Source of the DNA: a virus
Taxonomy: Duplodnaviria; Caudoviricetes
Virus record (IMG/VR): IMGVR_UViG_3300046777_001585
Location: 1 to 56,448 of that record
Strand: one strand, 5' to 3'
DNA length: 56,448 bases
Shown: in pieces, positions 1 to 43,916 of the stretch
How positions within the stretch are numbered: the stretch's first letter is position 1
Layout of the letters: each line of letters starts with the position of its first letter
Notes under the pieces: generated by a model
Databases searched by the model: none
What the model was told of the DNA's origin: nothing
The model's input: the letters and a program-made list of their open reading frames with translations, nothing else
Position numbers and translations under genes: made by a program

Positions 1-2553
1 CCCGTTACTCCGCCTGCAACCCCACCGGCCCCGTCTCCCGCGCCGTCTTCGACTCCCCCCAGCGGCGGCATATATACTCCCGGCCCGACACCGCCCCCCA
101 GCGGCGGCATATATACTCCCGGCCCGGCAACGCCGCCTGTCGCCCCGACTATTCCAAACCCGACGGTTACTCCGCCGGTAACACCGCCGGTAACACCGCC
201 TGTCACCCCGGAGACTCCGGCAACCCCTCCGGTAACACCTCCCGTCACTCCGCCGGTAACACCCCCGGCAACCCCTCCGGTAACACCCCCCGTCACTCCG
301 GAGACTCCGGTAACCCCACCGGTAACCCCACCGGTAACCCCACCGGCTACTCCGCCCGCCACGCCGGCTACTCCAGCGTTCAGGCCCGCGCGCGGGAACA
401 CGTTGATCAATGGGGACATGCAGCGTGACAGCGAGGGCCTCATCCTAGACACGCAGGGAAATCGCGTAGCGGCGGGGACGGTCATCGACCTTGGAGCGGG
501 CGGCAAGTTCTACGTAGGCGCTGACGGCAAGCTGTCCGCTAACGACCCAAATGTCGTTCCCCTTGCACCCTCTGGGCAACTTGTTGCACCCACGGGGGCT
601 TACTTATCCACGGCGGCGCAAAAGCAAGCTTTCACGGCAGGAGCCAATGCCGCGGGGATGAAGGAAGATTCCACGGGAAGGCTGTTTTATGCCAACGGAA
701 CGGTTGTTCCAGAGGGAACAGTCATATCGTCTGCCCCCGGATCTTTTGCGGGATCTACGCTTGGCTACAGGGTAGGGGCAAACGGAAGGGCGTCTTTATT
801 CCTAAACCTACCCGGAGTTCCCGGATTTTCAGGACCTCCGGAAGTAAAGCAATATGTCGGACCCGGCATTGCAAAGGCCTTTGACCTTGGGGGTCGTGAC
901 GTTAACCAAGTCCTGAGCGAAACGCTTCCTCCTCTTTACATAGATGGGAAGAAAAACACGAACGTCACGCTTCAGCAAATCGACGACGAGATATTCAGAA
1001 AAACCCTTCGCACGGGGTATGCCCCAGTCGCCGCTGGGACAAAAAAAGAGGAATACGGAAATCTAGGCTTTGGCCAGGCCTTTGCCGGGGGCAATGTTGC
1101 CATCCCAAATACTAAAGGCGCGGGCCTTTGGGCAGCGGGCCTTGATCCAGACGACCCCTCTGTTGGTCTTCGAATCGAGCGTTGGGCGCGTGAAAACCCT
1201 TGGGGCGCTGAAAATGTCAACGATTTCTATAAGACCTTTGGCATTGACAGGGCCACTCTTACTAACGAGGAGAAAAGAAAATATCAGCTAGAAGCGGTTG
1301 ATTGGTATTTTCGAAATAAAGGCCAAATGGCCCCTGTTCCATACGGAAGCGATGAATATGTTGCTCAAAACATAAACAGAATTCATCGCCGTACCGGCTA
1401 CGTACCAATCCCTCAAGGAACCGTCATCAACGGTGTCACGCTTGGCGGCGGCCTTGGAGCGAGCAACGATAACCCCAATACATTAAACGCGACTTATGGC
1501 GGTTTGATTGGAATTGGGATTGACCCATACGACCCCGCGCTGTGGCAAAGGCTTGACCTGCTTGTTCGAAACGACAACAAGATAGGCGGAGAAATCGGCG
1601 GCAAACTTGCCGAGTATTTCAGCAAGAATCCGAGAACGGGGACTAGCGCCGACCTTATCAACGGAGTGGACTGGTACTACCGCGACCTTGGTCGCCGGAT
1701 GGACAAGGACAACTCATTCTTTGGGTCGCTGGTCGGGAAGATTATTGGCATTGGCCTGACAACCGTTGCGGGCGTTATTAACCCGTGGCTTGGTGCTGCA
1801 GTAGGAGCAGGAATTGGCGTGGCCAGCGGCGGCGGATTCTTGGGCGCACTGATGGGCGGACTTGGTGGGTATGGCTGGGGCAACATCCTTGGCAAGGCCG
1901 GGATTAACCTCAACAACATCGTCAAGATTCCGATTATCCAGAAGCTGGGCATCCTGCCCTCCCCATCTACTGCGTTTGGAGTGGAAGCTCTTCAGGCACT
2001 CCTGTCGAGTCCCGTCGAACTTGGGAAGAAGTTTGCAGGAAGTCTGGCCGGTGTTGCGTGGGACGAGTTGACTGAAGAGGACAAGCGTCAGATGTCTGAC
2101 CTTGCCATCGAGATGAACGTCCCAATCGCCCAGTTCAAGGCAGGCATGAGACAGCCTGGCGCTGCATCCCCTGCGCCTTCCCCGTCTCCTTCCCCGTCTC
2201 CTTCCCCGTCCCCCGCGCCGTCTTCGACTCCCAGTGTCGGCCCAAGAGGGATAGTGGACTTATCAAGCTACGCCTTGGCCAATGGCCTTATCAAAAGGGC
2301 AACGGGAGGCGAGGTCACAAGCCCGTGGGCCTCGGACCTTGAGCAGTTGACCAAGGGATGGGATCAAAAGCAGCAGTCTTTGGAAGATAAGTTTTCTCAG
2401 ATGACGAATGACCAGTTCATCCAACAGGCGGACGCAAGCTCGTCGCAGGCTGCTCCCGGCGAGGCGAAAAAGGATTACACTGACTTAATGTCACCGACGC
2501 CTAACGCCATGGCGTCGGCGGGCATTAACTCGTTCATCAAGAGCTACGGATAA
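1..2553 (+). CDS. 5'-truncated large virion-associated/cargo-like protein with Pro/Thr-rich repeats and a glycine-zipper segment
   Basis: Frame 1 is open from base 1 (PVTPPATPP...), so the 403 TTG is probably not the start. It contains (VTPP)n repeats, a hydrophobic GxxxG stretch and a RATGGEV motif, and ends 4 nt before the portal. Confidence 0.65.
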   Translation, partial: PVTPPATPPAPSPAPSSTPPSGGIYTPGPTPPPSGGIYTPGPATPPVAPTIPNPTVTPPVTPPVTPPVTPETPATPPVTPPVTPPVTPPATPPVTPPVTPETPVTPPVTPPVTPPATPPATPATPAFRPARGNTLINGDMQRDSEGLILDTQGNRVAAGTVIDLGAGGKFYVGADGKLSANDPNVVPLAPSGQLVAPTGAYLSTAAQKQAFTAGANAAGMKEDSTGRLFYANGTVVPEGTVISSAPGSFAGSTLGYRVGANGRASLFLNLPGVPGFSGPPEVKQYVGPGIAKAFDLGGRDVNQVLSETLPPLYIDGKKNTNVTLQQIDDEIFRKTLRTGYAPVAAGTKKEEYGNLGFGQAFAGGNVAIPNTKGAGLWAAGLDPDDPSVGLRIERWARENPWGAENVNDFYKTFGIDRATLTNEEKRKYQLEAVDWYFRNKGQMAPVPYGSDEYVAQNINRIHRRTGYVPIPQGTVINGVTLGGGLGASNDNPNTLNATYGGLIGIGIDPYDPALWQRLDLLVRNDNKIGGEIGGKLAEYFSKNPRTGTSADLINGVDWYYRDLGRRMDKDNSFFGSLVGKIIGIGLTTVAGVINPWLGAAVGAGIGVASGGGFLGALMGGLGGYGWGNILGKAGINLNNIVKIPIIQKLGILPSPSTAFGVEALQALLSSPVELGKKFAGSLAGVAWDELTEEDKRQMSDLAIEMNVPIAQFKAGMRQPGAASPAPSPSPSPSPSPSPAPSSTPSVGPRGIVDLSSYALANGLIKRATGGEVTSPWASDLEQLTKGWDQKQQSLEDKFSQMTNDQFIQQADASSSQAAPGEAKKDYTDLMSPTPNAMASAGINSFIKSYG
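163..378 (+). repeat. Degenerate 12-bp tandem repeat encoding (V/A)TPP
   Basis: Repeated ccggtaacacc/ccggtaacccca units. A 39-bp-period duplication (agcggcggcatatatactcccggcccg) also occurs at 61 and 100. Confidence 0.85.
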
Positions 2554-2557
2554 CCCA

Positions 2558-4942
2558 ATGCCTATAGACAAAGCACTGAATCCTGCGCCTTCACTCGAAA
2601 TTATCGCGGTGACGGACGAGGAACCCGATATTGAGATCGTGATTGACCCTGATGGGGGCGCGACGATTGAGATAGGGTCCTCGGACCAAGGACCAAGGGA
2701 CTTTTACGAGAACCTTGCCGAGGTGGTAGACCCTTCAGTGCTGTCCAGGATTGCGTTGGACTTGCTGGATCTGTACGAATCGGACAAGGCTAGCCGGGGA
2801 GATTGGGAGACCCAGTACACGAAGGGCCTTGAGCTGTTGGGTTTGAAGATGGAAGAGCGCACCAAGCCCTTCCGTGGAGCCTCGGGTGCCGCGCATCCCA
2901 TGCTCACAGAGGCGATTGTGCAGTTCCAAGCGCAGGCATTTAAGGAATTGATGCCCGCTGGAGGCCCTGTCAGGACGCAGATTGTTGGTAAAGAGACCTT
3001 GGACAAGGTCCAGCAGGCCGCTCGCGTTCAAGATTTCATGAACTATCAGATCACAACGGTGATGGCTGAGTACACACCGGAGATGGACCAGGCGCTTTTC
3101 TACCTGGGCTACGGTGGATCTGTGTTCAAGAAGACGTATTTCGACGCCACGCGCGGTCGGATGGTTAGTAAATTGGTCTTGGCGGATGATTTGATCATCC
3201 CGTACAACGGTTCGAGCGTGATAAGTGAGTGCCCACGCATTACTCACCGCATCGCGATGTACGAAAACGACTTCAAGAAGCGCGTTTGGTCTGGGGAATA
3301 TCTGGACTACACATTCTTTCCGTCCCCGTCCCCCGAATCTCCGTCAGAAATCCAGTCTGGGATTAACAGACTGGTGGGCATTGAGCCTTCCAGCCGCACA
3401 GACGAACTGTTTCTGCTGGAATTTCACGTCGATCTCGACATTGAGGGCTTTGAAGACGAGGACGAAGACGGAAATTTGACCGGGATCAAGCGTCCCTACG
3501 TCGTTACCGTCGAAGAAAACAGCGGAAAAATTGTTGGAGTTCGCAGGAACTGGGAAGAAGGCGACGAACTCAAGCAACGAATCGAATATTTCGTTCATTA
3601 CGTGCTGGTCGAGGGCCCTGGAGCATACGGCTTGGGCTTTGTGCACCTGATTGGAGGCCTTTCCAAGGCTGCGACCTCGGCACTTCGTCAGCTTTTGGAT
3701 GCAGGAACGCTCGCAAACCTGCCTGCGGGCTTCAAAGCCAAGGGTGCGCGGATCGCGGACGACGATAATCCCATCCAGCCGGGCGAGTGGAGGGATATTG
3801 ACGCGGGCGGCGCGGAACTTTCGGCCTCTCTGCTGCCGCTTCCGTACAAAGAGCCCAGCCAGACGCTATTCCAGCTGCTCGGATTTACGGTCGAGGCCGG
3901 CCAGCGCCTTGCCAGCATTGCTGACATGCAGGTTGGAGACGGAAATCAGCAGGCGGCGGTAGGAACTACGCTGGCGTTGCTGGAACGCGGCTCGATGGTG
4001 ATGTCCGCCATCCACAAGCGCCTGCACTATTCGCAGAAACTAGAGTTTGAGATGCTCGCGCGCGGGTTCGCGCGGTGTTTGCCAGACTCCTACCCCTATG
4101 ACGTGCCGGGTGCAAGCCGCACCATCAAGCGTTACGACTTCAACAACATGGTCGCGGTGCTTCCAGTATCCGACCCGAACATCTTCTCGAGCGCCCAGCG
4201 TCTTACGCTGGCGCAGATGCAGCTTGAAATGGCGCAGAGCGCGCCGCAGATGCACAACCTGTACGAAGCCTACTATCGCGTCTACTCCGCGATGAACGTG
4301 CGGGACATCGATGGCATTCTGAGGCCTCAGAACACGCAGATGCCCAAGGATCCAGCCTCTGAAAACTCCTCTGTCATGGACTTGATGGAGCTAAAGGCGT
4401 TTGCAGGCCAGCACCATGATGCCCACATCATGGCGCACTTGCTGATGGGGATGTCTCCCCTCATCCAATCCATTCCTCAGGCGGCGATCATCTTGCAGAA
4501 GCATGTGTTTGATCACATTCGCTTGAAGGCGGAAGAGGATGCGGAGGCGGAACTCTTTCGCCAGTACGGGAAAGACCCTGAAAGACTTGTCTCCGACATC
4601 CAGAGAGAAGGCCTGGTCGCGACGCTTATCGCCAAGAACCTGCAAGAAGCCAAGGCCCTGCAGGAACAGTTGGCTGGTATGGGCCAGGCGCAGGCTCCGC
4701 AGCAGGACCCGGTGGTCATGCTGAAGGAAAAGGAGCTGGAACTTCGTGCGCAGCAGGATCAAGCGAAGATGCAGATCGAACAGGCGAAGATGCAGCAGAA
4801 TGCACAGATTCAGCAGCAGCGTATTCAGTCCCAAGAGAAGATTGCGCAGGCTCGCGTGGATGTCTCGCGCGAAAGAGCAGCAATGATGAACGAACAAATT
4901 CAAGGAGCACAACAAAATGCCGCTCAAAAAGGGTCGCAGTAA
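2558..4942 (+). CDS. Portal protein
   Basis: 794 aa with HPMLTEAIVQFQAQA, YGLGFVHLIGG and RQLLDAGTLANLPAGFKA motifs and a Q-rich C-terminal coiled coil, typical of P22/HTVC010P-like portals. It heads the head module. Confidence 0.9.
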   Translation: MPIDKALNPAPSLEIIAVTDEEPDIEIVIDPDGGATIEIGSSDQGPRDFYENLAEVVDPSVLSRIALDLLDLYESDKASRGDWETQYTKGLELLGLKMEERTKPFRGASGAAHPMLTEAIVQFQAQAFKELMPAGGPVRTQIVGKETLDKVQQAARVQDFMNYQITTVMAEYTPEMDQALFYLGYGGSVFKKTYFDATRGRMVSKLVLADDLIIPYNGSSVISECPRITHRIAMYENDFKKRVWSGEYLDYTFFPSPSPESPSEIQSGINRLVGIEPSSRTDELFLLEFHVDLDIEGFEDEDEDGNLTGIKRPYVVTVEENSGKIVGVRRNWEEGDELKQRIEYFVHYVLVEGPGAYGLGFVHLIGGLSKAATSALRQLLDAGTLANLPAGFKAKGARIADDDNPIQPGEWRDIDAGGAELSASLLPLPYKEPSQTLFQLLGFTVEAGQRLASIADMQVGDGNQQAAVGTTLALLERGSMVMSAIHKRLHYSQKLEFEMLARGFARCLPDSYPYDVPGASRTIKRYDFNNMVAVLPVSDPNIFSSAQRLTLAQMQLEMAQSAPQMHNLYEAYYRVYSAMNVRDIDGILRPQNTQMPKDPASENSSVMDLMELKAFAGQHHDAHIMAHLLMGMSPLIQSIPQAAIILQKHVFDHIRLKAEEDAEAELFRQYGKDPERLVSDIQREGLVATLIAKNLQEAKALQEQLAGMGQAQAPQQDPVVMLKEKELELRAQQDQAKMQIEQAKMQQNAQIQQQRIQSQEKIAQARVDVSRERAAMMNEQIQGAQQNAAQKGSQ

Positions 4943-5159
4943 AAAGGTCATTGGCGGCAACATCGGCGAGATGGTGCGGAAGTTCAAAAAGACCGGGAAG
5001 ATTGGAACTAGTAGCCCAGGTGGCCTGAAGTCTGCTGTTTCGCAGGCCGCGGCGATTGCGTATTCAAAAGCGGGCAAAGCCAAGACCAAAAAAAGCATGG
5101 GCGGCGCAGTTAGGTCTGTTGTTCGCAGGGACGGAAGGACCCCGACCAAGATTTATTGA
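4917..5159 (+). CDS. Small basic (Lys-rich) virion protein
   Basis: MPLKKGRSKKVIGGNIGEM...QAAAIAYSKAG is a common small basic phage family. SD aggag; overlaps the portal end by 26 nt; contains KSMGGAV. Confidence 0.75.
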   Translation: MPLKKGRSKKVIGGNIGEMVRKFKKTGKIGTSSPGGLKSAVSQAAAIAYSKAGKAKTKKSMGGAVRSVVRRDGRTPTKIY

Positions 5160-5169
5160 GTGATTTTTC

Positions 5170-5458: not shown

Positions 5459-5932
5459 ATGACAACTGCATCTGAAGAAAAGCCGATGACGGCGCTTGAG
5501 CAGAAGTGGAAGGAAGCTGGCGAGGGCAAAAGCCCTGCGTTGGACGACGCTTATGACGCTGAAGGCAAGTTTCAGCCGGAAAAGCTTGGGACCGCGCTGC
5601 GAGATTTAGTTCCAACCCCAGTAGGCTGGCGAATTGCCATTCTTCCCTACCGTGGACCCGAAAAAACCAAAGGCGGAATTGTTCTGGCGGACGAAACGCA
5701 GCGTCGAACGCAGCTTGCTACGACGTGTGGTTACGTTTTGAAGCTAGGGGACCTCGCCTACAAGGATGAGTCCAAGTTTCCTTCCGGCCCGTGGTGCGCG
5801 GAAGGTGATTGGATCATTTTCGGGCGCTATGCGGGTTCTAGGATCAGCATTGACGGCGGAGAAATTCGTATCTTGAACGACGATGAAATCATCGGGCGTA
5901 TTAACGACCCCGAAGATATTCTTCACATGTGA
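5459..5932 (+). CDS. groES: Co-chaperonin GroES (Cpn10)
   Basis: PVGWRIAI, KTKGGIVL, GDWIIFGRYAG and RILNDDEIIG match Cpn10 motifs. SD ggaggg. Confidence 0.92.
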   Translation: MTTASEEKPMTALEQKWKEAGEGKSPALDDAYDAEGKFQPEKLGTALRDLVPTPVGWRIAILPYRGPEKTKGGIVLADETQRRTQLATTCGYVLKLGDLAYKDESKFPSGPWCAEGDWIIFGRYAGSRISIDGGEIRILNDDEIIGRINDPEDILHM

Positions 5933-5943
5933 GGAGCATGCAA

Positions 5944-6813
5944 ATGTCAGACGATGAAATGCAGTTTAACGTAGGGGAAGACGAATCCCCTGCCACGGTC
6001 ACCTTGAACCCCACTGAGGGGAACAAGGTTGAGGCGGTTGTTGAGGAGGGCGAGCTTGACCAGTACAGCGATAAGGTTAAGCGGCGCATTGACAAGCTGA
6101 CGGCTCGGTTGCGGGAGACCGAACGCCGTGAACAGGCGGCCTTGGAGTATGCCAAGGGCGCGCAGCAGCGTGCGCACGAGCTGGAGAGGCAGTATCAGCG
6201 CACGGATTACGCGCGGTTGAATGAGGCGAACACTCGCCTAGAGAGCCAGGCTTTGGCCCTGAAGCAGATTATCCGCAAGGCCCGTGAAGAGGGCGACGTG
6301 GATACTGAAACAGAGGCTCAGCAGCGCCTGACATCGATTATGCTCGAGAAACAGCAGGTAGTTAACGTTGCAGCTCAGCGTGAAGCGTATCTGAACCAGC
6401 CGCAGCAGCAGGTCGCGCCGCAACAGCAGACACCGCGGCCCGCGCAGCGTCAGCCCGACCCCAAGGCGGAGGACTGGGCGGAGCGTAACCAGTGGTTTGG
6501 GCGGGACACGGTCCTGACCCACGCGGCATGGGGCGTTCACAAGGAGATGGTTCAAAAGGAAGGATTTGACCCCCAGTCAGATGACTACTATGATGAACTT
6601 GACAAACGCATGAGAGACCTTTTTCCACAAAAGTTTGAAAGTGCGTCAACTAATTCCAGGAGCTATCGGCCCGTGCAAACGGTAGCTCCTGCGGCCCGAT
6701 CAATGGGCGCAGTACATGCACGCCGCACTGTCCGGTTGACTCCGAGCCAGGTTGCGATTGCCAAAAAGTTGGGTGTTCCGCTAGAGGAATACGCCAAGTA
6801 CGTGAAGGAGTAG
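5944..6813 (+). CDS. Putative scaffolding protein
   Basis: Acidic N-terminus, coiled coil, WAERNQWFG, and C-terminal VRLTPSQVAIAKKLGVPLEEYAKY. Lies between GroES and capsid; SD gaggag is 7 nt before the ATG at 5944. Confidence 0.7.
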   Translation: MSDDEMQFNVGEDESPATVTLNPTEGNKVEAVVEEGELDQYSDKVKRRIDKLTARLRETERREQAALEYAKGAQQRAHELERQYQRTDYARLNEANTRLESQALALKQIIRKAREEGDVDTETEAQQRLTSIMLEKQQVVNVAAQREAYLNQPQQQVAPQQQTPRPAQRQPDPKAEDWAERNQWFGRDTVLTHAAWGVHKEMVQKEGFDPQSDDYYDELDKRMRDLFPQKFESASTNSRSYRPVQTVAPAARSMGAVHARRTVRLTPSQVAIAKKLGVPLEEYAKYVKE

Positions 6814-6816
6814 GAA

Positions 6817-7296
6817 ATGTCCGACGCTTTTGATGTGCCAAAATTGAATCGCACCGCTCGCGAGACTCGCGAAGCGACTGCGCGCCGCAAGCCTTGGGCT
6901 CCCCCTTCCCGTCTTGATGCGCCGCCCGCTCCCGCCGGATACAAACACCGGTGGATTAGAGCAGAAGCCGGTGGTCAGGAAGACCGAATCAACATTGCTG
7001 GTAAGCTTCGAGAAGGCTACGAGCTTGTTCGTTCGGAAGAGTACCCTGACTTCACTGCCCCGTCAGTTGAAGACGGTCGTCACGCTGGGGTTCTCAGCGT
7101 TGGCGGGCTCCTTCTTGCTCGAATCCCTGAAGAATCCGTTGATGAACGCAGGGCATACTATTCTTCCCGCACCCACGACCAGCTTAAGGCTGTCGATAAC
7201 GACCTTTTGAAGTCAAATTCGCATTCATCGATGCGGATTGACCGACCGTCGCGGCAGACCAAAGTATCTTTTGGGGGGCCGAAAGGCTCCAATTAG
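6817..7296 (+). CDS. Conserved head-module protein
   Basis: KPWAPPSRLDAP...YKHRWIR...GGLLLARIPEE; a conserved gene upstream of the capsid in this phage group. Confidence 0.75.
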   Translation: MSDAFDVPKLNRTARETREATARRKPWAPPSRLDAPPAPAGYKHRWIRAEAGGQEDRINIAGKLREGYELVRSEEYPDFTAPSVEDGRHAGVLSVGGLLLARIPEESVDERRAYYSSRTHDQLKAVDNDLLKSNSHSSMRIDRPSRQTKVSFGGPKGSN

Positions 7297-9783: not shown

Positions 9784-9793
9784 GTTTTGGGCG

Positions 9794-10331: not shown

Positions 10332-10604
10332 ATGAAAAAACGAGGAATGGGCGCTGCGACCAAGGGTGGTGGCTGCTGCATGGGCGGCATGGCCGTCAAG
10401 AAGTACGCCGAAGGCAGCCCTAAAGAGGGCGTTACCAAGGACATGCTTCCTTGGATGTCTAAAGAACTGGGCAAGAAGTCGTATGGCTCGGCGGAAGGCG
10501 TTACCAAGGACATGCTTCCTTGGATGTCTAAGATGTCGAAGAAAAAAGCGATGAAAAAGCCTTCTCGTAGGCTTCCGTATGAACCGATGGTTCCAAGGAG
10601 ATAA
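10332..10604 (+). CDS. Small Lys/Met-rich protein with internal duplication
   Basis: MKKRGMGAATKGGG...; EGVTKDMLPWMSK occurs twice. Confidence 0.65.
   Translation: MKKRGMGAATKGGGCCMGGMAVKKYAEGSPKEGVTKDMLPWMSKELGKKSYGSAEGVTKDMLPWMSKMSKKKAMKKPSRRLPYEPMVPRR
10428..10531 (+). repeat. 35-bp perfect direct repeat, 69-nt period
   Basis: ggcgttaccaaggacatgcttccttggatgtctaa at 10428-10462 and 10497-10531. Confidence 0.9.
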
Positions 10605-10606: not shown

Positions 10607-10768
10607 ATGCCACGTGGAATGGGATGCGCCGTTCGCGGCGGTAAAAAAGGCAAGACCATCAAGGCCACCAGCAAAAAGACTGGTCCGATCATGATGAACA
10701 AAGGCGGGATGGCCATTAGCCCTCGCAAACGCATGGCTATGGGCATGAAGAACGGCGGAATGTGCTAA
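10607..10768 (+). CDS. 53-aa Lys/Met/Gly-rich basic protein (not in ORF track)
   Basis: SD aaggag; MPRGMGCAVRGGKKGK...MNKGGMA...MKNGGMC; its stop abuts the next ATG. Confidence 0.7.
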   Translation: MPRGMGCAVRGGKKGKTIKATSKKTGPIMMNKGGMAISPRKRMAMGMKNGGMC

Positions 10769-21825: not shown

Positions 21826-21829
21826 AAAA

Positions 21830-22250: not shown

Positions 22251-24131
22251 ATGGCTGAAGGTATCATGTCCCTGCCCGATTCTCCCGAAATGACGGGGGA
22301 ATTCGATGTCACTAATGGCCCGGAAGTTTCTCCCGAGGACCGTAAGAAGTTCGAGGACGCGGTTCGTGAGTATGCCAACGCCGACCCGGTTCGGTTTGGC
22401 AATGACCTCATGGGCGCGGTTGAAGAGGCCGATCCAGAGACGGTACGCGAATTTCGAGACGTTTTGTCTTCCGTAGACATGCCCGATGAGCTGGTTGATG
22501 CCATGGGGCAGATGGTTGACGCTTTGCTGAGCGAACCAGAGAACTATGAAGAAAACCGTCAGGGATTTATTGCGGAAGGGGTTCCGGAAGAACTCCTGCC
22601 GGTGACGTTTGATGCCGCCTATTTCACCGCTCTAAACATCGCGCTTGACCAAATTTCCGAGCAGAAAAACAGCCGCCCGGAAATGCCTGACAACATGGAA
22701 TTTGCCGAAGGGGGCCTCGCCACCTTGGCTGATATGGGCCGTGGTCCTGACACCATGCTGGCGCACATCACGCCTTCCGAGGCACGATTGCTGCGCCGCA
22801 GGGGCGGAAGTGGAACCATAAACCCTGATACAGGACTGCCAGAGTTTTTCTTCAAAAAAATATTCAAGGCCATTGGGAAGGTCTTCAAAGCCGCGGTAAA
22901 CGTCGTTACAGCCGTCGTCAAACCAATCGTTAACGTCGTCAAGAAAGTAGCTGAAAATCCTATCGGAAGGGTCCTCCTCACTGTCGGGGCAACGATGCTC
23001 CTTGGTCCGGGAAGCGCGCTTTTTGGTGGAGCTGGCTTGGCGGGATCGCTTGGCATGGCGGCCATGCCCAACTTGGCGCTGGCCTTCAATACTGCGGCTG
23101 CAAGCACTTTGGTGAACTGGGCGGGCGGCCAGAAATTTGGCGATGCGCTTAAGGGCGGATTGTTGACTGGCGCTACAGTGGGCATTGGCTCCAAGGTGCT
23201 TAACCTGACCCCGGAGGCATACACCAAGGCGGCAGAGGCCGCGAAAAGTTCTGCCGCAGTAAAGACAGCCGGGCTGGGGGAAAGTTACGCGGGAGAGATG
23301 CCGGAAGCTACTGCACTGCCCGAAGGGGGCGCCAATCAGGCTATCACCTCCGCAAAGGCGTCGGTTCCCGACGCTGCCACCAGTGCGGCGGATATCGCGG
23401 CGAAAGCAGGTTCTCCCACCACAGCGACCAAGGCCGTCGAACAATCGTGGCTTGGCAAGACCTTTGGAAAGCCCGGTGAATGGGTCAACGACAACATTCT
23501 ACCTGGCGGGATTAAGCAGAAGGGCGAGGTTGCGGCCAACGAAGCGTTTGACAGCGCCTACAAAGACGCCATTGCCGGGGGCTTAAGCGACAAGGCCGCT
23601 ACTACTCTTGCCCAAAATGCGTATGACGCAGCTGTCCCCGGACTTCTTCGGACCTACGGCCCGCTTGCTGCCGTCGGGATAGGGGGCGCGTATCTGGCGG
23701 GGGCTTTTGACCCCGCCACGGGAGAAGAAGCAGCGCCCCCGCCAGGCTACGAGGGGATGATCGACGAACGCTACGCTGGAAAGACCGGCTATCAATTGAT
23801 CGAAGAAGACCCCGAGAAATGGGCCTTCAAAAGAGGAGATTATTCCACTGGGTATCACGGGTTTGACCCCTACTCCTCGAACTACCTCTCGGGGTCCGCG
23901 CCTCAGTACGCTGCCAAAGGCGGGGAAATGACGCTTGATGATTTTCCCCGTAAGACTGGCAAGATCGACGGCCCTGGAACCGGGACTTCGGACTCAATTC
24001 CAGCGATGCTTTCCGACGGAGAGTTTGTATTCACCGCAAAGGCGGTCAGGGGCGCGGGCAACGGCTCTCGGCGTGCGGGCGCTGCTCGCATGTATGCCTT
24101 GATGAAGTCGCTGGAGAAGTCCAATGCCTGA
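22251..24131 (+). CDS. Internal virion/ejection protein with membrane-active segments
   Basis: GRGPDTMLAHITPSEA...TINPDTGLPEF and GPGTGTSDSIPAMLSDGEFV motifs; amphipathic and glycine-zipper helices. Confidence 0.65.
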   Translation: MAEGIMSLPDSPEMTGEFDVTNGPEVSPEDRKKFEDAVREYANADPVRFGNDLMGAVEEADPETVREFRDVLSSVDMPDELVDAMGQMVDALLSEPENYEENRQGFIAEGVPEELLPVTFDAAYFTALNIALDQISEQKNSRPEMPDNMEFAEGGLATLADMGRGPDTMLAHITPSEARLLRRRGGSGTINPDTGLPEFFFKKIFKAIGKVFKAAVNVVTAVVKPIVNVVKKVAENPIGRVLLTVGATMLLGPGSALFGGAGLAGSLGMAAMPNLALAFNTAAASTLVNWAGGQKFGDALKGGLLTGATVGIGSKVLNLTPEAYTKAAEAAKSSAAVKTAGLGESYAGEMPEATALPEGGANQAITSAKASVPDAATSAADIAAKAGSPTTATKAVEQSWLGKTFGKPGEWVNDNILPGGIKQKGEVAANEAFDSAYKDAIAGGLSDKAATTLAQNAYDAAVPGLLRTYGPLAAVGIGGAYLAGAFDPATGEEAAPPPGYEGMIDERYAGKTGYQLIEEDPEKWAFKRGDYSTGYHGFDPYSSNYLSGSAPQYAAKGGEMTLDDFPRKTGKIDGPGTGTSDSIPAMLSDGEFVFTAKAVRGAGNGSRRAGAARMYALMKSLEKSNA

Positions 24132-27102: not shown

Positions 27103-27111
27103 GGAATTCCT

Positions 27112-29160
27112 ATGAAGTCAAAAGTGCTTAATCGTCCGATGTTTCAGAAGGCCATGGACCCCGAAAACGTGGGGATCATGCATGGCTTCAAGGATTCCCT
27201 TGAGGACAACCTCAAGAAGGTCATGTCGATGTCCGAAGAGGACGACGACGAGAACGAGGCCCCGGAGTACGAAAACGAGGATGAGGAGGGCGAATCCGGG
27301 AGGATGATCGGCAGAACGCCCCGCTCTCCGGAAATCCTGATGAACACCTTGCGCGGGGACATGCGGTCCCCTTCCGCGCGCAGGAAGGAGCTGGCTGACC
27401 TGGTGGGCGAAGAGGCCGCCATGGAAACACCTGAGGAGGTGTTGACGCTGCTCCAAAGCAAGCTTGGCCAGGGCATTGCCAGTGTCCCCGGCTCACAGAA
27501 CGCGGGCCCAGCGCCCGGTGGGGCCCCTCCTCCTCCCCTCCCGCCACCGGGCGCTGGTGCACCGCCCTCAGGTCCGATGGGCCTTGAGGCACTTGGGTCG
27601 CAACTTCAGGCGGCGGGGCTTACGCCTCCCGCAGGCGGCGCGCCTGCCCCAGAGGCACCGGCATCTGGACCAGGGCCCGCGGCCCCCGGACCACTGAACA
27701 TGGCCGACGGCGGTGAGGTTAGCTATGAGCGGTACTACGCCGGCGGCGGAGACGTTCAAAAAAAAAGTAATCTGGAAGATGTAGTTTCCCGTTTTGGAAG
27801 CCCCAATACGGAGGATATTAAAAAGCGTATGGGGGAATATACCTCCCTGTACGGCGATATCCTCGGGGATTCTAAGAAACAGAAAGACCTAGACAAGGCG
27901 CTTATGCTGGCGCAGATCGCCCAGCGTGGGTTCAACTTTGCGGCAAACGTTAGCCCTACCGGAACTCCTTTGACGGGCTCGTTCGCGGCCCGCGCTGCAG
28001 GGGCTTTTGGGGATGTTCCGGGGATTCTTGTCGAAGGGACCAAGAATCAGCGCGAGCGAGATCAAAAAATCAAACTCGCGGCACTTGAAGCCGCTCGCGG
28101 AGACGAATCGGAATCTCGCAAGCTCCTGAGTCAGCTATACATTGCAGACATGAAGGGTAAAGGGTCGTCTAAAACCCTTGTTAAAGAGTTTGTGGACGAA
28201 AACGGCCGGTACGTACAAAGAAACGTTGTTTACGATAAAGATGGAACCTACAAAACGACTTTCACCGACGTTTCTGGGAATGAGATCGTTCCAGGAAAGC
28301 TGTATGAACTTGGGGGGAAAGAAGACGGTGCGGGGGGCGCTGGAATATCCGGCCTCTCTTCAAAAGCAAACGAAGGAACTGCTTTTCTGGCTCAAAATGC
28401 AGAAGCCTACTTAAATGGCACCCTTGCTCCTGAGATGAGAAATGTATTTAGATCTCTTATAGCGGAAGAATTCAGGCCCGCAACAGACTCTGAGGGCAAC
28501 GTTTCCTATATTCCGAGTCCTCTTGCAAAGGATTTGATTGCGAGAGACCCCTCGTTGGCTCTCGTGGTTCCGTCTAGTGTTTCTCCTACAGGAAAACCCG
28601 TGTCTGGCGGGCTTTCTGAAGGAGTTCCCGGAGGAGTTCCCTTGGAAACCCAAGACCAGCGAGAGCCGACTCTTTACGAAAACAGTAGAGGCGTAGGGGG
28701 GCTCGGGGCTCTTGAGGCAGGGTTAGCAAGGGTTCCTTTGGTGACAGAATATGCTGGATCACCGGAACTTCTTGCGAGGAAAAATTCGTTTGCGCTTCAG
28801 ACTAGGCAGCTCCTGAACGAACTTAATGCGAATAAGGCTAAGTCCTTTAGTTCCTCCCAAGACCTGAGGGATGCGCTTGGAAATGTCCAAGACCCCAGCG
28901 TAATTACTACGCAAGCATCCCTTGACGCAGCTGTCCGTACCCTAGACGAAGCATATGCTCGGTTAATACAAGAAACCCAGACCATAATGGAAAATCCAAC
29001 GACCAGTAAGAATAGAAGGGAAGCAGCGGAAGAGGCCTTTATTCTTGCAAACGAGCATAGATCCCAAATTGGCTACCAAGCTGGAATAGAAGAAGAAAAG
29101 GCCATCAGGGACAGGGCTGAACTTTCTCGTTTGAGGAAGCAGATGGGAGGAGGACTGTAA
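27112..29160 (+). CDS. Internal virion/ejection protein
   Basis: VLNRPMF N-terminus, acidic and Pro-rich linkers, MADGGEV motif; lies in the ejection-gene block. Confidence 0.6.
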   Translation: MKSKVLNRPMFQKAMDPENVGIMHGFKDSLEDNLKKVMSMSEEDDDENEAPEYENEDEEGESGRMIGRTPRSPEILMNTLRGDMRSPSARRKELADLVGEEAAMETPEEVLTLLQSKLGQGIASVPGSQNAGPAPGGAPPPPLPPPGAGAPPSGPMGLEALGSQLQAAGLTPPAGGAPAPEAPASGPGPAAPGPLNMADGGEVSYERYYAGGGDVQKKSNLEDVVSRFGSPNTEDIKKRMGEYTSLYGDILGDSKKQKDLDKALMLAQIAQRGFNFAANVSPTGTPLTGSFAARAAGAFGDVPGILVEGTKNQRERDQKIKLAALEAARGDESESRKLLSQLYIADMKGKGSSKTLVKEFVDENGRYVQRNVVYDKDGTYKTTFTDVSGNEIVPGKLYELGGKEDGAGGAGISGLSSKANEGTAFLAQNAEAYLNGTLAPEMRNVFRSLIAEEFRPATDSEGNVSYIPSPLAKDLIARDPSLALVVPSSVSPTGKPVSGGLSEGVPGGVPLETQDQREPTLYENSRGVGGLGALEAGLARVPLVTEYAGSPELLARKNSFALQTRQLLNELNANKAKSFSSSQDLRDALGNVQDPSVITTQASLDAAVRTLDEAYARLIQETQTIMENPTTSKNRREAAEEAFILANEHRSQIGYQAGIEEEKAIRDRAELSRLRKQMGGGL

Positions 29161-41187: not shown

Positions 41188-41213
41188 CGCGGCTCAATCA
41201 GGAGGGACCACCC

Positions 41214-42131: not shown

Positions 42132-42142
42132 GGGCTCAGTCA

Positions 42143-42640
42143 ATGAGGAAAATGCGTCGGCCTCGCCGGTACGCTGATGGCGGTCCAGCTACTTCTGCCC
42201 CTCCGGGCGGAAAAAGCAACGAGGACAAGGAAAAACTCCTGCAGTCCTACTTCAGCAAGAGCCCTGGCATCTCCAAGGAGGAACAGGACAGCTTCCGGCG
42301 TGCGCTCGGGCTTCCCATTCCAACAAGCACGACAAGAAAGCCCCCCTCTCGTTCCCCGAACGCCCAGGCTGCCGGAGAACGCAGGAAAAGGCCGCTAACC
42401 ACTCGCCCCAAAGCGAGGACCGCGGTTCCTGCTCCACGGACTCGAACAGCTCCCCCTCCGCCTCCTCCAGCCCCCGTTCAAGCTCCTGCTCCTGCCCCCT
42501 CACAGGGCGGAATGTTGGGCGGTGCCATGAATGCCATTGAAGAGCGAAATAAAATGCTTCAGGGCCTTCGGGGTGGCGGTCTTGTGAAGAAGAAAAAGCC
42601 AGTGGGCCGCATGCCGCGTCCTCGGCGTACCAAACGATGA
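42143..42640 (+). CDS. Basic Pro-rich disordered protein with two GG motifs
   Basis: RRYADGGPA near the N-terminus and LRGGGLVKKK near the C-terminus. Confidence 0.65.
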   Translation: MRKMRRPRRYADGGPATSAPPGGKSNEDKEKLLQSYFSKSPGISKEEQDSFRRALGLPIPTSTTRKPPSRSPNAQAAGERRKRPLTTRPKARTAVPAPRTRTAPPPPPPAPVQAPAPAPSQGGMLGGAMNAIEERNKMLQGLRGGGLVKKKKPVGRMPRPRRTKR

Positions 42641-42653
42641 AAGGAAATCAGAC

Positions 42654-43916
42654 ATGATCAAGAAGCCGATGATGGCGAAGCGCACCACCAAGGCCGCGCC
42701 CGCTAAGAAGAAGACCGTAGCGGCTAAGAAGAAGACCGTAGCGGCTAAGAAGCCGATGACCGTTGCCGGGAAGACGGTGAAGAAGTACCAGGTTGGCGGC
42801 CCCGCAATGGGCAGCCCTCGTGCCAATCCCACGGCGACCGTTGGAATGCAGCGGCCCACGATAACGCCGGGAATGACTGCCCCACAAATGAGGCAAGCCT
42901 ACGGCCAGAGCGCGGGCATGAATAGGGCGGAGGCCCAGCGGCGAAACGCCAGCATGGCTACCCCTGCAGCGCGTTCCGCCTCCGGCGGTTTCTTGGGTGG
43001 AATGCTGGCGCGCCAAGGCATGACGCCTCGTCCGGGCATGGGCGGCTCAATGATCGCCAACAACGGCGGCGGGCTGATTCCCAACAATGCCGGTGGCATG
43101 GGCCGTGGAATGCCTGTAACTCCCGCTCAGTTTGAACAGTCTCTCGGAGCAGATCGAAATAACTACGTCAGGAACGAGCGAGGAGACTTTTTCCTGCGTC
43201 CGCCTCCGGGCACAACTCCCGCGCAGGCAGAACAGATGTATAGGGCGCAAACGGCCCGACTTCAGGCGATGCAGCAGGGAGCGGGCGGCTCAATGATCGC
43301 CAACAACGGCGGTGGGCTGATTCCTCCCCCGAACTCGCGGCCTAACGTTCCGGGGATTACCCCTCCAATGAATCGCCCCGTTCGCACTCCTCCGCCGCGA
43401 CAGGGGATGCCGCAGGGAATGGACCCCGCAATGCAGCAGTACGCTCAGATGATGCAGCGGCGACAGGGTATGCCGCAGCAAGGGCAGATGCCTTCCATGA
43501 TGCAGGGTATGCAGGGATTGGGCGCGGCGCAGGGTATGCAGCAAGGGCGGGGAGTTCCTTCCCAGATCTCCGACCTGTACGGCGGGCAGCAGAGGCCTCC
43601 CATGATGCAGGGGATGCAGGCGCAGGGGATGCCGGCAATGCCTCCTATGAGGCAACTGGGCGCGGGGCAGCCGCTTAATCGAGCGCCTGCGCAGGGAATG
43701 GACCCATCAATGCAGCAGGAGGCTAACAGGCAGCTGGAGCAGGCTGCGCAGCTGGGTATGCAGGGATTGCAAGCGCCTGCGCGCTTCAGGAAAGGCGGCG
43801 AGGCCAAGAAAAAGGCCGCAGCGCAAGGTCGCATGGCCAAGCCCGCAGGGCGGGGACGCACGACTAAACCTGCAGTGCGTGGCCGCATGGCCAAGCCGAC
43901 ACGAGGGAAGAAGTAA
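42654..43916 (+). CDS. Disordered Gln/Met/Gly/Pro-rich protein with histone-H1-like basic ends
   Basis: SD aagga; (KKKTVAA)n N-terminus, KKYQVGG, GGSMIANNGGGLIP twice, FRKGGEA, and a basic C-terminus. Confidence 0.7.
   Translation: MIKKPMMAKRTTKAAPAKKKTVAAKKKTVAAKKPMTVAGKTVKKYQVGGPAMGSPRANPTATVGMQRPTITPGMTAPQMRQAYGQSAGMNRAEAQRRNASMATPAARSASGGFLGGMLARQGMTPRPGMGGSMIANNGGGLIPNNAGGMGRGMPVTPAQFEQSLGADRNNYVRNERGDFFLRPPPGTTPAQAEQMYRAQTARLQAMQQGAGGSMIANNGGGLIPPPNSRPNVPGITPPMNRPVRTPPPRQGMPQGMDPAMQQYAQMMQRRQGMPQQGQMPSMMQGMQGLGAAQGMQQGRGVPSQISDLYGGQQRPPMMQGMQAQGMPAMPPMRQLGAGQPLNRAPAQGMDPSMQQEANRQLEQAAQLGMQGLQAPARFRKGGEAKKKAAAQGRMAKPAGRGRTTKPAVRGRMAKPTRGKK

Follow-up and report, generated by a model that had tools for sequence, protein, structure and literature searches.

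In low-complexity proteins encoded by the DNA stretch analyzed here (56,448 nucleotides; hereafter the window), a short peptide built around a glycine pair recurs, which raises the question of whether it is a genuine motif and what it might do. The window is a 56-kb podovirus record whose nearest isolate is Phage DSL-LC04, and the phage is of the DSL-LC04/HTVC023P type. The first-pass annotation described the pattern [AVILMFYW]..GG.[VA] in 13 copies within eight unrelated proteins, and proposed that it marks cargo for packaging into the capsid or for proteolytic release.

Distribution of the motif in the window

All 13 quoted heptapeptides were re-translated exactly, each in the frame of a long open reading frame on the + strand. 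These copies, an overlooked near-copy, and two conserved modules are located as follows.

2296..2316, + strand: RATGGEV in the pre-portal protein (ORF 1-2553, 5' end open); degenerate, with R at the hydrophobic position
5091..5111, + strand: KSMGGAV near the C-terminus of an 80-aa basic protein (4917-5159; phrog_2423)
10374..10394, + strand: CCMGGMA in a 90-aa protein (10332-10604); a doubtful copy
10404..10424, + strand: YAEGSPK (context VKKYAEGSPK), the overlooked near-copy, in which GS replaces GG
10694..10714, + strand: MNKGGMA in a 53-aa protein (10607-10768)
10745..10765, + strand: MKNGGMC, the final seven residues of the 53-aa protein
22701..22721, + strand: FAEGGLA in a 626-aa tape-measure-like ejection protein (22251-24131)
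22749..22850, + strand: DTMLAHITPSEARLLRRRGGSGTINPDTGLPEFF, a second conserved module in the 626-aa protein, after its first motif
23910..23930, + strand: AAKGGEM (preceded by QY), a degenerate motif ahead of the C-terminal module of the 626-aa protein
23970..24047, + strand: GPGTGTSDSIPAMLSDGEFVFTAKAV, the core of a widespread tape-measure/ejection-protein module, in the 626-aa protein
27700..27720, + strand: MADGGEV in a 682-aa ejection protein (27112-29160), past a Pro/Gly/Ala-rich linker
27736..27756, + strand: YAGGGDV, the second copy in the 682-aa protein, 12 residues downstream of MADGGEV
42170..42190, + strand: YADGGPA, residues 10-16 of a 165-aa basic protein (42143-42640)
42566..42586, + strand: LRGGGLV near the C-terminus of the 165-aa protein
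42786..42806, + strand: YQVGGPA near the N-terminus of a 420-aa Q/M/G/P-rich protein (42654-43916)
43785..43805, + strand: FRKGGEA near the C-terminus of the 420-aa protein

The carriers comprise two or three small basic head-module proteins, a large pre-portal protein, two large ejection proteins, and two low-complexity lysis-adjacent proteins. Judged by gene position and family, they look like virion-internal or ejected proteins. Carrier genes lie on both sides of the portal gene, and that of the 80-aa protein overlaps its end. The carriers are not all unrelated, because the 90- and 53-aa proteins have an N-terminal box in common.

The literal pattern shows only weak enrichment within the window. 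It was found 20 times in the 69 window proteins (17,929 aa), compared with 11.5 ± 3.3 in whole-protein shuffles (20 was reached in 3 of 200) and 13.0-14.2 in local shuffles, which preserve low complexity (7-15 of 150 reached 20). GG dipeptides were not enriched in the window proteins (161 observed, 181 expected). A tighter pattern, [FYM]..GG.[VAM], picked post hoc after inspection of the data, occurred 10 times against 3.3-3.6 expected, and none of 150 shuffles reached 10. The same pattern occurred 12 times in DSL-LC04 against 3.9 expected, a count reached by none of 200 shuffles. Some copies had been called degenerate, and only 7 of the 13 quoted peptides fit the tighter pattern. KSMGGAV, MKNGGMC, AAKGGEM, and LRGGGLV are degenerate, and a GG motif stands at the equivalent positions of their orthologues.

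The motif lies in flexible, basic or Pro/Gly-rich stretches. A pattern scan of the window proteins found it in neither the major capsid protein, the scaffold, nor the replication enzymes, as first described for the capsid and the replication enzymes. On the other hand, the portal, also described as having no convincing copies, matches the literal pattern twice (MPAGGPV and LGYGGSV), and the core residues of these matches (P133, G136, P137, V138, and G184-S188) do not vary among 49 portals. The literal pattern also occurs in tail fibres and further structural proteins.

Conservation in related genomes

The strongest support for the motif is its conservation across genomes rather than its counts in the window. 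Orthologous copies stay while their flanks diverge in the families of the 165-, 420-, 682-, and 626-aa proteins, the last two including DSL-LC04. In the 420-aa family, KYQVGG is retained in all seven members holding the N-terminus (the window protein and six homologues), and RFRKGGEAKKK is identical in all eight aligned sequences (the window protein and seven homologues), with a hypervariable middle containing many insertions and deletions. The middle of the 165-aa family is poorly conserved, and in homologues with 34.5% identity the YADGGPA and LRGGGLV sites read RRYSGGG and FWRGGSV, respectively. The description of two copies bracketing a variable middle applies to these two proteins but not to the 626-aa protein, much of whose middle is conserved. 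The FAEGGLA site of the latter is F[AS][ED]GG[LI]A in three relatives (L084, L085, and L087) and FAMGGIA in DSL-LC04. A motif in the N-terminal region was present in 39 of 40 members of 550-900 aa among those listed for this family, and Phi..GG lies within 45 aa upstream of 43 of 44 LAHxxPxE modules. In the 682-aa protein, PLNMADGGEV is invariant in the same three relatives and reads PLNMANGGIV in DSL-LC04; the YAGGGDV site reads YADGGAV, YAEGGDV, or YAAGGEA in relatives.

Homologues of the 80-aa protein have the pattern at the KSMGGAV site in 39 of 67 cases (KMAKGGDV, KMKKGGDA, and similar) and lack it in 28. In the family of the 53-aa protein, all 17 homologues contain copies (42 matches in total), with C-terminal ends such as KGYKKGGAAC and MRYGGSCG. 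CCMGGMA has no conserved counterpart, the homologues having RGMGAATRGGGAV at that position. The only counterpart of RATGGEV is in the 82%-identical homologue L004, and its conservation carries little information because this sole comparison is with a near-identical protein. Pre-portal proteins (ORFs labelled 1_2553 by blastp, pooled with those labelled 22251 at portal-flanking loci) are 23-61% identical to the window proteins, yet each contains 1-7 canonical, near-identical copies (e.g., RRFAEGGEV, KRFNEGGEV).

The motif was enriched by gene class across relatives: carrier families had an [FYM]..GG density of 4.05 per 1000 aa, 12.6 times the 0.32 of all other families. Among 165 copies in relatives, positions not used in the selection were also biased: 77 have Ala at −2, 123 have Ala or Val at +2, and 77 have a basic residue (Lys or Arg) at −5; at +1, Glu is the most frequent (42). 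Neighbouring copies are no more than 15 residues apart in 26 of 91 cases, 18 of 184 copies occupy the very C-terminus, and disorder-promoting and basic residues abound in the flanks. These results demonstrate a real conserved short linear motif, [KR]0-2-[FYM]-[A/K/N]-x-G-G-x-[V/A], and bear out the claim of a short modular peptide common to flexible, basic or ejection-type proteins.

In HTVC023P the pattern matches 4 times over 19,058 aa, once within the terminase, and in Caulobacter RW it matches twice. Because these relatives share the portal and capsid genes yet hold few copies, the head machinery does not need many. The T7 internal proteins gp13-gp15 showed no match, and gp16 showed one match to the broad pattern that fails the strict form.

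A widespread tape-measure and ejection-protein module

The motif is not private to the window phage. It forms the portable N-terminal portion of a module that is older and very widely distributed in tape-measure and ejection proteins and has the layout PhiAxGGxPhi - GxGTGTSDSIPAxLSxGEFV - approximately 45 residues - PhiAxGGxV. The module was found in 10,379 protein cluster representatives, mostly tape-measure or ejection proteins, and in 250 phage records, where the annotation is mostly tape-measure protein. In the best 150 of the 10,379 representatives, the motif occurred 188 times compared with 28.4 ± 5.3 in shuffles (6.6 times). The core is 60-93% identical across otherwise unrelated phages, and giant proteins repeat the motif-core-motif unit. 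The window module core has sequence matches to the tape-measure proteins of Douge and JBD30, and motif copies occur in Kvothe and Vibrio tape-measure proteins, HTVC115P gp72/gp73, and Caulobacter RW gp66c. An AF2 model of the C-terminal 116 aa gave pLDDT values of ~50-55 across motif and module, and thus predicts no independently folding unit. A literature and structure search found no paper and no structure covering the motif or module. The motif belongs to an element that is widespread in phage tape-measure proteins but unstudied.

Phage lambda gpH apparently carries the module at residues 733-784. FATGGFT (733-739), GEFVFT (754-759), and YATGGYV (778-784) form the motif-core-motif layout, and residues 729-781 matched the profile of the window C-terminal family with weak scores (hhalign E 2.3e-4, probability 44%; BLASTP E 0.003). 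In the excerpted text of PMC12617516, this region is described as not resolved by cryo-EM and without an assigned function; gpH* spans approximately residues 1-710 after a maturation cleavage whose site and catalyst were not identified, and is proposed to be a trans-envelope channel. On this partial account, the unmapped cleavage falls in a Gly-rich stretch just upstream of the module copy, and the module lies within the N-terminal part of gpHC, the fragment staying with the tail tip.

Possible function of the motif

With confidence somewhat short of even, we infer that the motif may serve as a multivalent docking peptide of proteins leaving the virion through the tail. A tight GG turn would put the aromatic residue or Met and the Val or Ala side by side as a small knob, which would tether proteins that exit through the tail channel inside the particle, either to a common putative partner or to one another. 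Several copies per protein would provide avidity, the motif itself would not be the bond that is cut, and the half-module would have spread to many disordered proteins in the clade of the window. This reading is supported by orthologous copies that persist amid diverging flanks, by the density and positional bias of the motif in relatives, by its replication in DSL-LC04, and by the occurrence of the module in proteins that exit via the tail. Disordered basic flanks, a lack of predicted fold, close-spaced and C-terminal copies, and portal-flanking genes, as judged from sequence and model, would be expected of such a peptide. Counting against it are the location of the 165- and 420-aa protein genes outside the structural block, the few copies in HTVC023P and Caulobacter RW, the 28 homologues of the 80-aa protein without the motif, the absence of strict matches in the T7 internal proteins, and the weak scores of the lambda comparison. 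Since the motif occurs in tape-measure proteins, any partner cannot be capsid-specific, and the presence of the module in siphophage tape-measure proteins, which belong to tails and not capsids, makes a capsid-specific address unlikely. The tag proposed in the first-pass annotation is real, its capsid-specific role fits poorly with the tape-measure occurrence, and its function is putative.

A role after ejection is conceivable but doubtful; ejected proteins could join into an envelope-spanning conduit or touch a common envelope component such as peptidoglycan or the membrane. Leaving the virion and meeting the cell envelope is the sole property common to all carrier types, namely tape-measure proteins of siphophages infecting Gram-positive or Gram-negative bacteria and ejection proteins of podoviruses. 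The high identity of the core between unrelated phages suggests a hardly varying partner, and long hydrophobic Gly-rich stretches in both the 626-aa carrier and the pre-portal protein recall those of membrane-inserting tape-measure proteins. The channel proposed for lambda gpH* points the same way; however, the lambda module is in gpHC and not in the channel-forming fragment. In addition, membrane or cell-wall features are lacking in the small basic proteins and in the Q/M-rich protein of 420 aa, and no match to a known peptidoglycan-binding or enzyme family was obtained.

It is unlikely that the motif marks or adjoins maturation cut sites used by a phage protease, a host protease, or self-cleavage, the proteolytic alternative of the first-pass annotation. 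Viral cysteine proteases use GG-X sites, and several window copies follow flexible Pro/Gly/Ala linkers. Lambda gpH* ends at roughly residue 710 (PMC12617516, excerpted text) and the lambda module copy begins at residue 733, and the T5 tape-measure protein is cleaved too; however, the mapped T5 cut, in the part of PMC10038345 that describes it, is after R1127 and not at GG. No protease family was detected in the window by Pfam, PHROGs, or NCBIfam, in agreement with the earlier statement that none was visible, and the 'ATP-dependent protease' of DSL-LC04 has neither a Pfam match nor a window homologue. In the head module, a coiled-coil scaffold-like protein is separate from the capsid protein of 302 aa, a layout that probably often goes without a maturation protease. 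Furthermore, the hydrophobic residue is at P5 and not P4, and pre-portal proteins with up to seven copies would end in many pieces. Processing is also disfavoured because a GG cut at the extreme C-terminus would remove almost nothing. It keeps some weight, given the cleavage of lambda gpH just upstream of the module.

Still less probable is the absence of any specific function, the motif being a turn-forming feature that arises from the composition of disordered, basic, Gly-rich proteins and was inherited by descent. The weak excess of the literal pattern, its matches in folded proteins (portal and tail fibres), the non-independence of orthologous copies, and the wide variation in copy number among relatives are consistent with this. 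In contrast, the strong bias at −2, +2, and −5, the survival of the motif in the 420-aa family despite its indel-scrambled middle, the near-identical copies in otherwise divergent pre-portal proteins, and the excess over shuffles in the best 150 module-bearing proteins argue against it. Mimicry of the GroES mobile loop, by which the copies would bind host GroEL, is highly improbable: a Cpn10-family protein of the phage (Pfam E 2.8e-8) has the loop EKTKGGIVLAD, and some DSL-LC04 copies read GGIV or GGIA, but the GG of the motif is not followed by the hydrophobic tripeptide that is the GroEL-binding part of the loop, its commonest +1 residue being Glu, and the GroES loop lacks the defining aromatic residue or Met at −3 and the Ala at −2.

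Comparison with known systems

GG-X protease sites (adenain, ASFV pS273R) and double-glycine leaders resemble the putative docking peptide in having a hydrophobic residue before the GG pair. Compared with the adenain site (M/I/L)xGG, the hydrophobic residue of the motif is one position further from GG, and Ala commonly stands where adenain needs M/I/L. Some window copies are at the extreme C-terminus, and neither a matching protease gene nor a C39 transporter gene was detected in the window (Pfam, PHROGs, NCBIfam).

The T4 capsid targeting sequence is likewise a short peptide that addresses otherwise unrelated proteins to the head for later injection. It is N-terminal and removed by the prohead protease, whereas the window copies are internal or C-terminal, have no sequence likeness to it, and are accompanied by no detectable prohead protease; a packaging role in the window is putative. 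Encapsulin cargo-loading peptides, short Gly-containing sequences at disordered cargo termini, dock inside an HK97-fold shell. They share with the motif a place in disordered parts of unrelated proteins, but their consensus is different, many window copies are internal, and the motif is also present in tail-located tape-measure proteins.

T7 gp6.7 and gp7.3 are small, basic virion proteins encoded next to the portal gene. They contain GG pairs, one of them C-terminal (AFGGKK), but fail the motif because the aromatic residue directly adjoins GG. No homology was found. The 80-, 90-, and 53-aa window proteins are their likely functional counterparts. The record of gp6.7 is annotated 'is injected from virion into host cell'.

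Lambda gpH resembles the carriers as a protein leaving the virion through the tail; it differs in being a siphophage tail protein, not podovirus head-internal, and in lacking the GTSDSIPA core. The core GPGTGTSDS...GEF is shared by the actinophage and vibriophage tape-measure proteins (e.g., Kvothe gp26, Douge gp16, JBD30 gp46). In gp26 of Gordonia phage Kvothe, the motif directly abuts the core (KFREGGPVWGPGTGTSDSI), and a free AFRNGGAV follows approximately 60 residues downstream. Kvothe, mycobacteriophage Douge, and Pseudomonas phage JBD30 differ in being long-tailed phages, and solved structures leave the module region unmodelled (JBD30, only the last 33 residues built; Douge, only residues 1658-1699). 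In this analysis, free-standing copies in many separate small proteins were seen only in the clade of the window and HTVC115P.

Genome organization of the window and its relatives

The window (56,448 bases) is an entire IMG/VR virus record; it is linear, is estimated to be 91% complete, and carries genes almost all of which lie on the + strand.

Features of the window
2558-4942, + strand: portal protein (PHROGs/Pfam)
5459-5932, + strand: Cpn10/GroES-like protein, between the portal gene and a scaffold-like gene (PHROGs/Pfam)
7911-8819: HK97-type capsid protein, 302 aa (PHROGs/Pfam)
22251-32369: large proteins of 626, 992, 682 and 1069 aa, at the place where podoviruses keep ejection proteins
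Also encoded: two SU10-type adaptor proteins and tail fibres (PHROGs/Pfam)
Also encoded: primase, helicases, family A polymerase, ThyX, holin, M15 peptidase and small terminase subunit (PHROGs/Pfam)

The 294-aa protein encoded at 5929-6813 has a long, charged sequence that looks helical and ends in a basic C-terminus; it is probably the scaffold. The closest isolate was Phage DSL-LC04 (portal identity, 69%), followed by the Pelagibacter phages HTVC023P and HTVC027P, the Roseobacter phages CRP-901 and CRP-902, and Caulobacter phages. DSL-LC04, HTVC023P and Caulobacter phage RW each have an annotated homologue of the Cpn10-like protein in the corresponding position. The large terminase gene of DSL-LC04 is located upstream of the big pre-portal gene; the window therefore begins within its own pre-portal gene (ORF 1-2553) and is without the large terminase. 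The start of this ORF (1-390, + strand) contains long Pro/Thr-rich tandem repeats with PVTPP units, and an 82%-identical homologue in a relative contains approximately 300 residues of TP and PVTPP repeats.

Several further genes were noted. The 992-aa protein (24124-27102, + strand) had the top coding score and the top G+C content (about 0.62) in the window; it gave no match in Pfam, PHROGs, NCBIfam or PDB and contained no copy of the motif described below. A small basic protein with a DUF6321 domain (Pfam E 4.5e-12) is encoded at 9761-10081 (+ strand), and in PHROGs families this domain forms the C-terminal end of far longer proteins. A C-5 cytosine DNA methyltransferase gene is present at 53839-54657 (- strand) in a short opposite-strand gene block near the small terminase gene.

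Occurrence of the motif in the window and in DSL-LC04

The first-pass annotation had proposed that a Phi-x-x-GG-x-[VA] peptide (Phi, hydrophobic residue) is shared by eight proteins and may serve as a capsid-loading or processing signal. The 13 peptides listed in support were all found as quoted. The literal pattern, [AVILMFYW]..GG.[VA], occurred 20 times in the window compared with 11.5 ± 3.3 times in whole-protein shuffles, 3 of 200 of which reached 20. When residues were shuffled within blocks of 12-40 residues, a fairer control for low-complexity proteins, 13.0-14.2 matches were expected, and 7-15 of 150 shuffles reached 20. The literal-pattern statistics inside the window are thus weak, and GG pairs were not in excess (161 observed, 181 expected). 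On the other hand, a stricter form, [FYM]..GG.[VAM], gave 10 matches against about 3.4 expected, a number reached by none of 150 shuffles. Since this form was picked post hoc, it was tried on DSL-LC04, in which it occurred 12 times compared with 3.9 expected (0 of 200 shuffles) and the literal pattern 24 times compared with 15.8 (6 of 200). DSL-LC04 is kin by descent, so this result counts as replication, not as a second, independent origin.

No convincing copy had been noted in the portal, yet the literal pattern matches it twice.

Literal-pattern matches in the portal protein
2951-2971, + strand: MPAGGPV; P133, G136, P137 and V138 invariant in 49 portals
3104-3124, + strand: LGYGGSV; G184-S188 invariant in 49 portals

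As their core residues are invariant in the alignment, both look like parts of the portal fold. MPAGGPV is similar to free copies such as FAMGGPV of DSL-LC04. Two tail-fibre proteins, a cement-like protein and others also matched the literal pattern. Among the 13 quoted copies, seven fit the strict form and four are degenerate yet lie at conserved motif sites, whereas RATGGEV and CCMGGMA were unsupported. In sum, the first-pass observation was borne out in part and sharpened.

Conservation of the motif in relatives

Judged by sequence comparison, the decisive evidence for the motif is its conservation across relatives. A portal scan of viral contigs yielded 580 relatives, and 80 loci were kept; the 682-aa protein as query gave 5 loci and the 420-aa protein 7. 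The middle of the 420-aa family is riddled with insertions, deletions and repeats. (V/Q)KYQVGG was retained in the window and the six homologues holding the N-terminus, and RFRKGGEAKKK in all eight aligned sequences. Homologues of the 165-aa protein (34.5% identity) have RRYSGGG for RRYADGG and FWRGGSV for LRGGGLV. The 682-aa family retains PLNMADGGEV (PLNMANGGIV in DSL-LC04) and a second copy 12 residues further on, and the 626-aa family retains MEFAEGGLATL. Copies were found in every one of the 17 homologues of the 53-aa protein (42 matches in total). Of 67 homologues of the 80-aa post-portal protein, 39 have a copy at the corresponding site and 28 do not.

The pre-portal proteins of the relatives, a set pooling ORFs labelled by blastp as 1_2553 and, among portal-flank loci, as 22251, are 495-1826 aa in length and 23-61% identical to the window proteins. 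They contain one to seven uniform copies, three to seven in most, e.g., RRFAEGGEA, RRFADGGEV, KRFNEGGEV, FMAEGGEV and GYKKGGPV; the DSL-LC04 protein has three in its first 60 residues.

Unique carrier-family sequences from the relatives were pooled, and selection on [FYM]..GG alone gave 165 contexts. The density of [FYM]..GG was 4.05 per 1000 aa in carrier families and 0.32 in other families, figures in which the carrier families were defined from the first-pass list and orthologous copies are not independent. Unselected positions were biased: Ala occupied -2 in 77 of 165 contexts, Lys, Glu or Asp occupied -1 in 106, and Ala or Val occupied +2 in 123, with Lys/Arg at -5 in 77 and at -4 in 64. 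The refined consensus is [KR]0-2-[FYM]-[A/K/N]-x-G-G-x-[V/A].

The flanks of 12 of the 13 quoted copies had a disorder-promoting fraction of 0.53-0.87 (RATGGEV, 0.47; whole proteome, 0.53), and basic residues made up as much as 0.38 of the flanks compared with 0.10 of the proteome. The regular-expression matches in the portal and tail fibres were without disorder-rich, basic flanks, except for the first portal match (0.57). Across 123 unique carrier proteins, five or fewer residues followed the copy in 18 of 184 cases, and the majority of copies were internal. C-terminal examples include the 53-aa family, with KKGGAAC or MRYGGSCG at the end, and pre-portal proteins that terminate in GYKRGGSVRKKRK. 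Neighbouring copies were separated by 15 residues or fewer in 26 of 91 gaps. Among the carriers, the protein starting at 42143 is alone in having a copy within its first 16 residues.

The adjacent small basic genes at 10332-10604 and 10607-10768 (+ strand) have an N-terminal box in common, RGMGAAT.GGG / RGMGCAVRGG, and resemble tandem paralogues. Many relatives have, in place of this pair, one longer gene starting with MAGRGMGAATRGGGAV, and a Cys near the C-terminus is recurrent in proteins of this type. A 360-aa protein (44098-45180, + strand) is encoded just downstream of the two motif-bracketed low-complexity proteins and has no motif copy. It gave weak, sub-threshold matches to the ADP-ribosyltransferase families ART-PolyVal (E 0.009) and PARP catalytic domain (E 0.012), and might be an injected effector.

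Free copies were also seen in other phages. The tape-measure protein of Gordonia phage Kvothe contains KFREGGPVWGPGTGTSDSI followed by AFRNGGAV, and that of a Vibrio phage also has free copies. In the unrelated pelagiphage HTVC115P, copies are present in two proteins encoded directly after the portal gene, and gp66c of Caulobacter phage RW carries copies including RYMDGGRV at its extreme C-terminus. HTVC023P matched the pattern four times, once in the terminase. No match was obtained in T7 gp6.7, gp7.3 or gp13-gp15, and gp16 had one match to a broad pattern, not to the strict form; gp6.7 and gp7.3 were rejected as bearers of the motif, their register being different. Given the few or absent copies in HTVC023P and T7, the abundance of free copies is a trait of the window's clade.

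A motif-bearing module in tape-measure and ejection proteins

In the 626-aa protein (22251-24131), the degenerate copy QYAAKGGEM (23910) precedes GPGTGTSDSIPAMLSDGEFVFTAKAV at the C-terminus. It lies 13 residues upstream of a core, G-x-G-(T/S)-G-T-S-D-S-I-P-A-x-L-S-x-G-E-F-V, present at 23970-24047, and PHROGs tape-measure families match precisely this core stretch. The last 96 residues of the protein matched 250 phage records, mostly annotated as tape-measure proteins of Mycobacterium, Gordonia, Arthrobacter, Vibrio or Burkholderia phages. Sequence matches extended to the tape-measure proteins of Douge (8zdo) and JBD30 (8rk3); only the last 33-42 residues were built in these structures and the module is not seen (PMC11445458, PMC13033339).

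In an exhaustive search without profiles, 10,379 cluster representatives scored E <= 1e-3, and 1,494 of them reached 1e-10. The best 150 of the 10,379 (91,113 aa) contained 188 strict motifs compared with 28.4 ± 5.3 over 100 shuffles, none of which exceeded 42; at least one motif was present in 113 of these proteins. In these 150 proteins, a strict motif lay within 45 aa upstream of 63 of 175 cores, most commonly at a spacing of 22 or 8 residues. Proteins of 1,800-4,700 aa repeat a unit consisting of PhiAxGGxPhi, one residue and GxGTGTSDSIPAMLSNGEFV, with a second copy (FAEGGxV) 43-55 residues after most cores. The 54 proteins of 550-900 aa have the same layout as the 626-aa protein, with the C-terminal module at the end and the first motif near residue 118-165, followed by an LAHxxPxE... 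module. The latter was found in 44 of the 54, and Phi..GG occurred within 45 aa upstream in 43 of these 44.

LAH module of the 626-aa protein
22749-22850, + strand: DTMLAHITPSEARLLRRRGGSGTINPDTGLPEFF, after the first motif

Four phage isolate records matched the LAH module, and a PDB sequence search matched it to no solved structure. No function-assigned Pfam, NCBIfam or PHROGs family covers the motif. When the C-terminal 116 aa of the 626-aa protein were modelled with AF2, pLDDT was about 50-55 over the motif and module and the terminal helices alone were confident; the model gave no compact or autonomous fold for the motif plus module. Within the searchable literature, none of the matches listed for motif and module strings was phage-related as judged by title and opening of abstract, no description of the motif or module was found, and in an ejection-protein review the word 'motif' occurred in the reference list only.

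The same motif-core-motif layout was seen by eye in lambda gpH, in which residues 733-784 read ...AAAAKFH-FATGGFT-GTGGKYEPAGIVHR-GEFVFT-KEATSRIGVGNLYRLMRG-YATGGYV..., although the similarity scores were weak: hhalign E 2.3e-4 with a probability of 44% for the window C-terminal family profile against gpH 729-781, and BLASTP E 0.003 against gpH 750-776. GpH* comprises about residues 1-710 of gpH, and residues about 690-817 are described as not resolved (PMC12617516). The module would thus be at the start of the retained C-terminal fragment, approximately 20-40 residues past the estimated cut. The T5 tape-measure protein is cut after R1127 (PMC10038345).

Possible functions of the motif

We tentatively favor the reading that the motif is a docking peptide. 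Docking would be in keeping with copies that are short, conserved, multivalent, often terminal and within flexible segments, and with carrier genes that lie on either side of the portal gene or within the ejection block. It would also suit the presence of the motif in tape-measure proteins, which, like the carriers, would be stored in the particle and leave it by way of the tail. The occurrence of the motif in tail-located proteins argues against a capsid-specific address. The first-pass interpretation as a whole received partial support.

The portal (49-row alignment) was co-folded with residues 178-232 of the 682-aa protein, which contain two copies; the result was neither for nor against binding (score 0.00, mark 0.32). 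The protein encoded at 6817-7296, a candidate partner in the first-pass annotation, was modelled by AF2 with a mean pLDDT of 65.6; the model had no Foldseek match in PDB at E <= 0.001 and nothing pointing to a protease. A pattern match in this protein in relatives (ISVGGLLLAR, 35 of 50) was rejected as a coincidence, being located in a predicted strand. The 1069-aa, 992-aa and 80-aa proteins and the portal, when searched by sequence against PDB, gave nothing meaningful.

If the motif instead acted once ejection had taken place, by helping to assemble the conduit or by contacting the envelope, the extreme conservation of the core across hosts would be accounted for, but this reading fits lambda poorly, in which the apparent module remains in the tail-tip fragment, and we consider it rather doubtful. 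That the motif is a processing signal is unlikely: cleavage has precedents in lambda and T5, but no protease gene was found in the window, the hydrophobic residue is in a different register, copies lie at the extreme C-terminus, and most pre-portal proteins have three to seven of them. No protease family was detected among 68 ORF products of the 91%-complete record with Pfam and PHROGs, nor among 14 ORF products scanned with NCBIfam and Pfam at looser cut-offs. DSL-LC04 has a gene annotated as an 'ATP-dependent protease' (21530-21982), but this gene matched nothing in Pfam and has no counterpart in the window; its product (MTTIAA..., GTGSAYA) resembles an HslV/proteasome-type N-terminal-threonine hydrolase. 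Chance or composition, with the literal counts on its side and the conserved sites in relatives against it, is quite improbable. Mimicry of the GroES mobile loop is scarcely credible and was set aside, as Glu and not a hydrophobic tripeptide is commonest after GG.

Beyond docking, a broader and speculative proposal, which we hold to be improbable as a whole, is that PhiAxGGx[VA] is a portable 'exit ticket' across tailed phages, recruiting its carriers to the molecules that the particle stores and that pass through the tail together with the DNA. In the window's clade, it would have been copied onto disordered proteins with fast-evolving middles (e.g., 420-aa, Q/M/G/P-rich; 165-aa, basic, encoded beside an ADP-ribosyltransferase-like gene). 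These proteins would then be injected host-takeover or anti-defence cargo, and the same element would account for where and why lambda gpH is processed.

The motif bears on how short-tailed phages choose the proteins that are stored in the head and injected, and on what the conserved non-helical parts of tape-measure proteins do. A seven-residue element at conserved sites in at least eight proteins of one phage, lying within a module found in more than ten thousand protein clusters and apparently in lambda gpH, is a concrete mutable handle on both, and lambda gives a direct experimental route for which ordinary genetics suffices. Should the motif prove to be an address tag, foreign proteins could be loaded into phage particles with it; should it be a structural turn only, its use would be limited to helping annotators recognize ejected proteins.

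Comparison with known systems

Adenain/ASFV-type sites, cut by a cysteine protease of the virus itself, have M/I/L two residues before GG, (M/I/L)xGG|x. The hydrophobic residue of the present motif is instead three residues before GG, with Ala at the adenain position in 77 of 165 copies, and LRGGGLV alone among the 13 quoted copies fits LxGG. The capsid targeting sequence of T4 is an N-terminal tag that packaging requires and that suffices for it, and it is removed by the prohead protease, whereas the window copies are internal or C-terminal, except in the protein starting at 42143, and no prohead protease was found with Pfam and PHROGs. Encapsulin cargo peptides are terminal, on a disordered tail, and dock to the HK97-fold shell protein from inside; most copies of the motif are internal (18 of 184 C-terminal), and their flanks are disorder-promoting. 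In the GroES mobile loop, a hydrophobic tripeptide directly follows GG, and the Cpn10-like protein of the window accordingly has EKTKGGIVLAD, thus GGIVL, in its mobile-loop-like stretch. In the motif, on the other hand, Glu is commonest after GG (42 of 165), with V or A at the second position only.

By alignment, the nearest known relative is the tape-measure module, apparently including that of lambda gpH; the nearest by concept are the T4 capsid targeting sequence and encapsulin cargo peptides. Short peptides common to packaged or ejected viral proteins are a known kind of element, to which the motif described here would belong.
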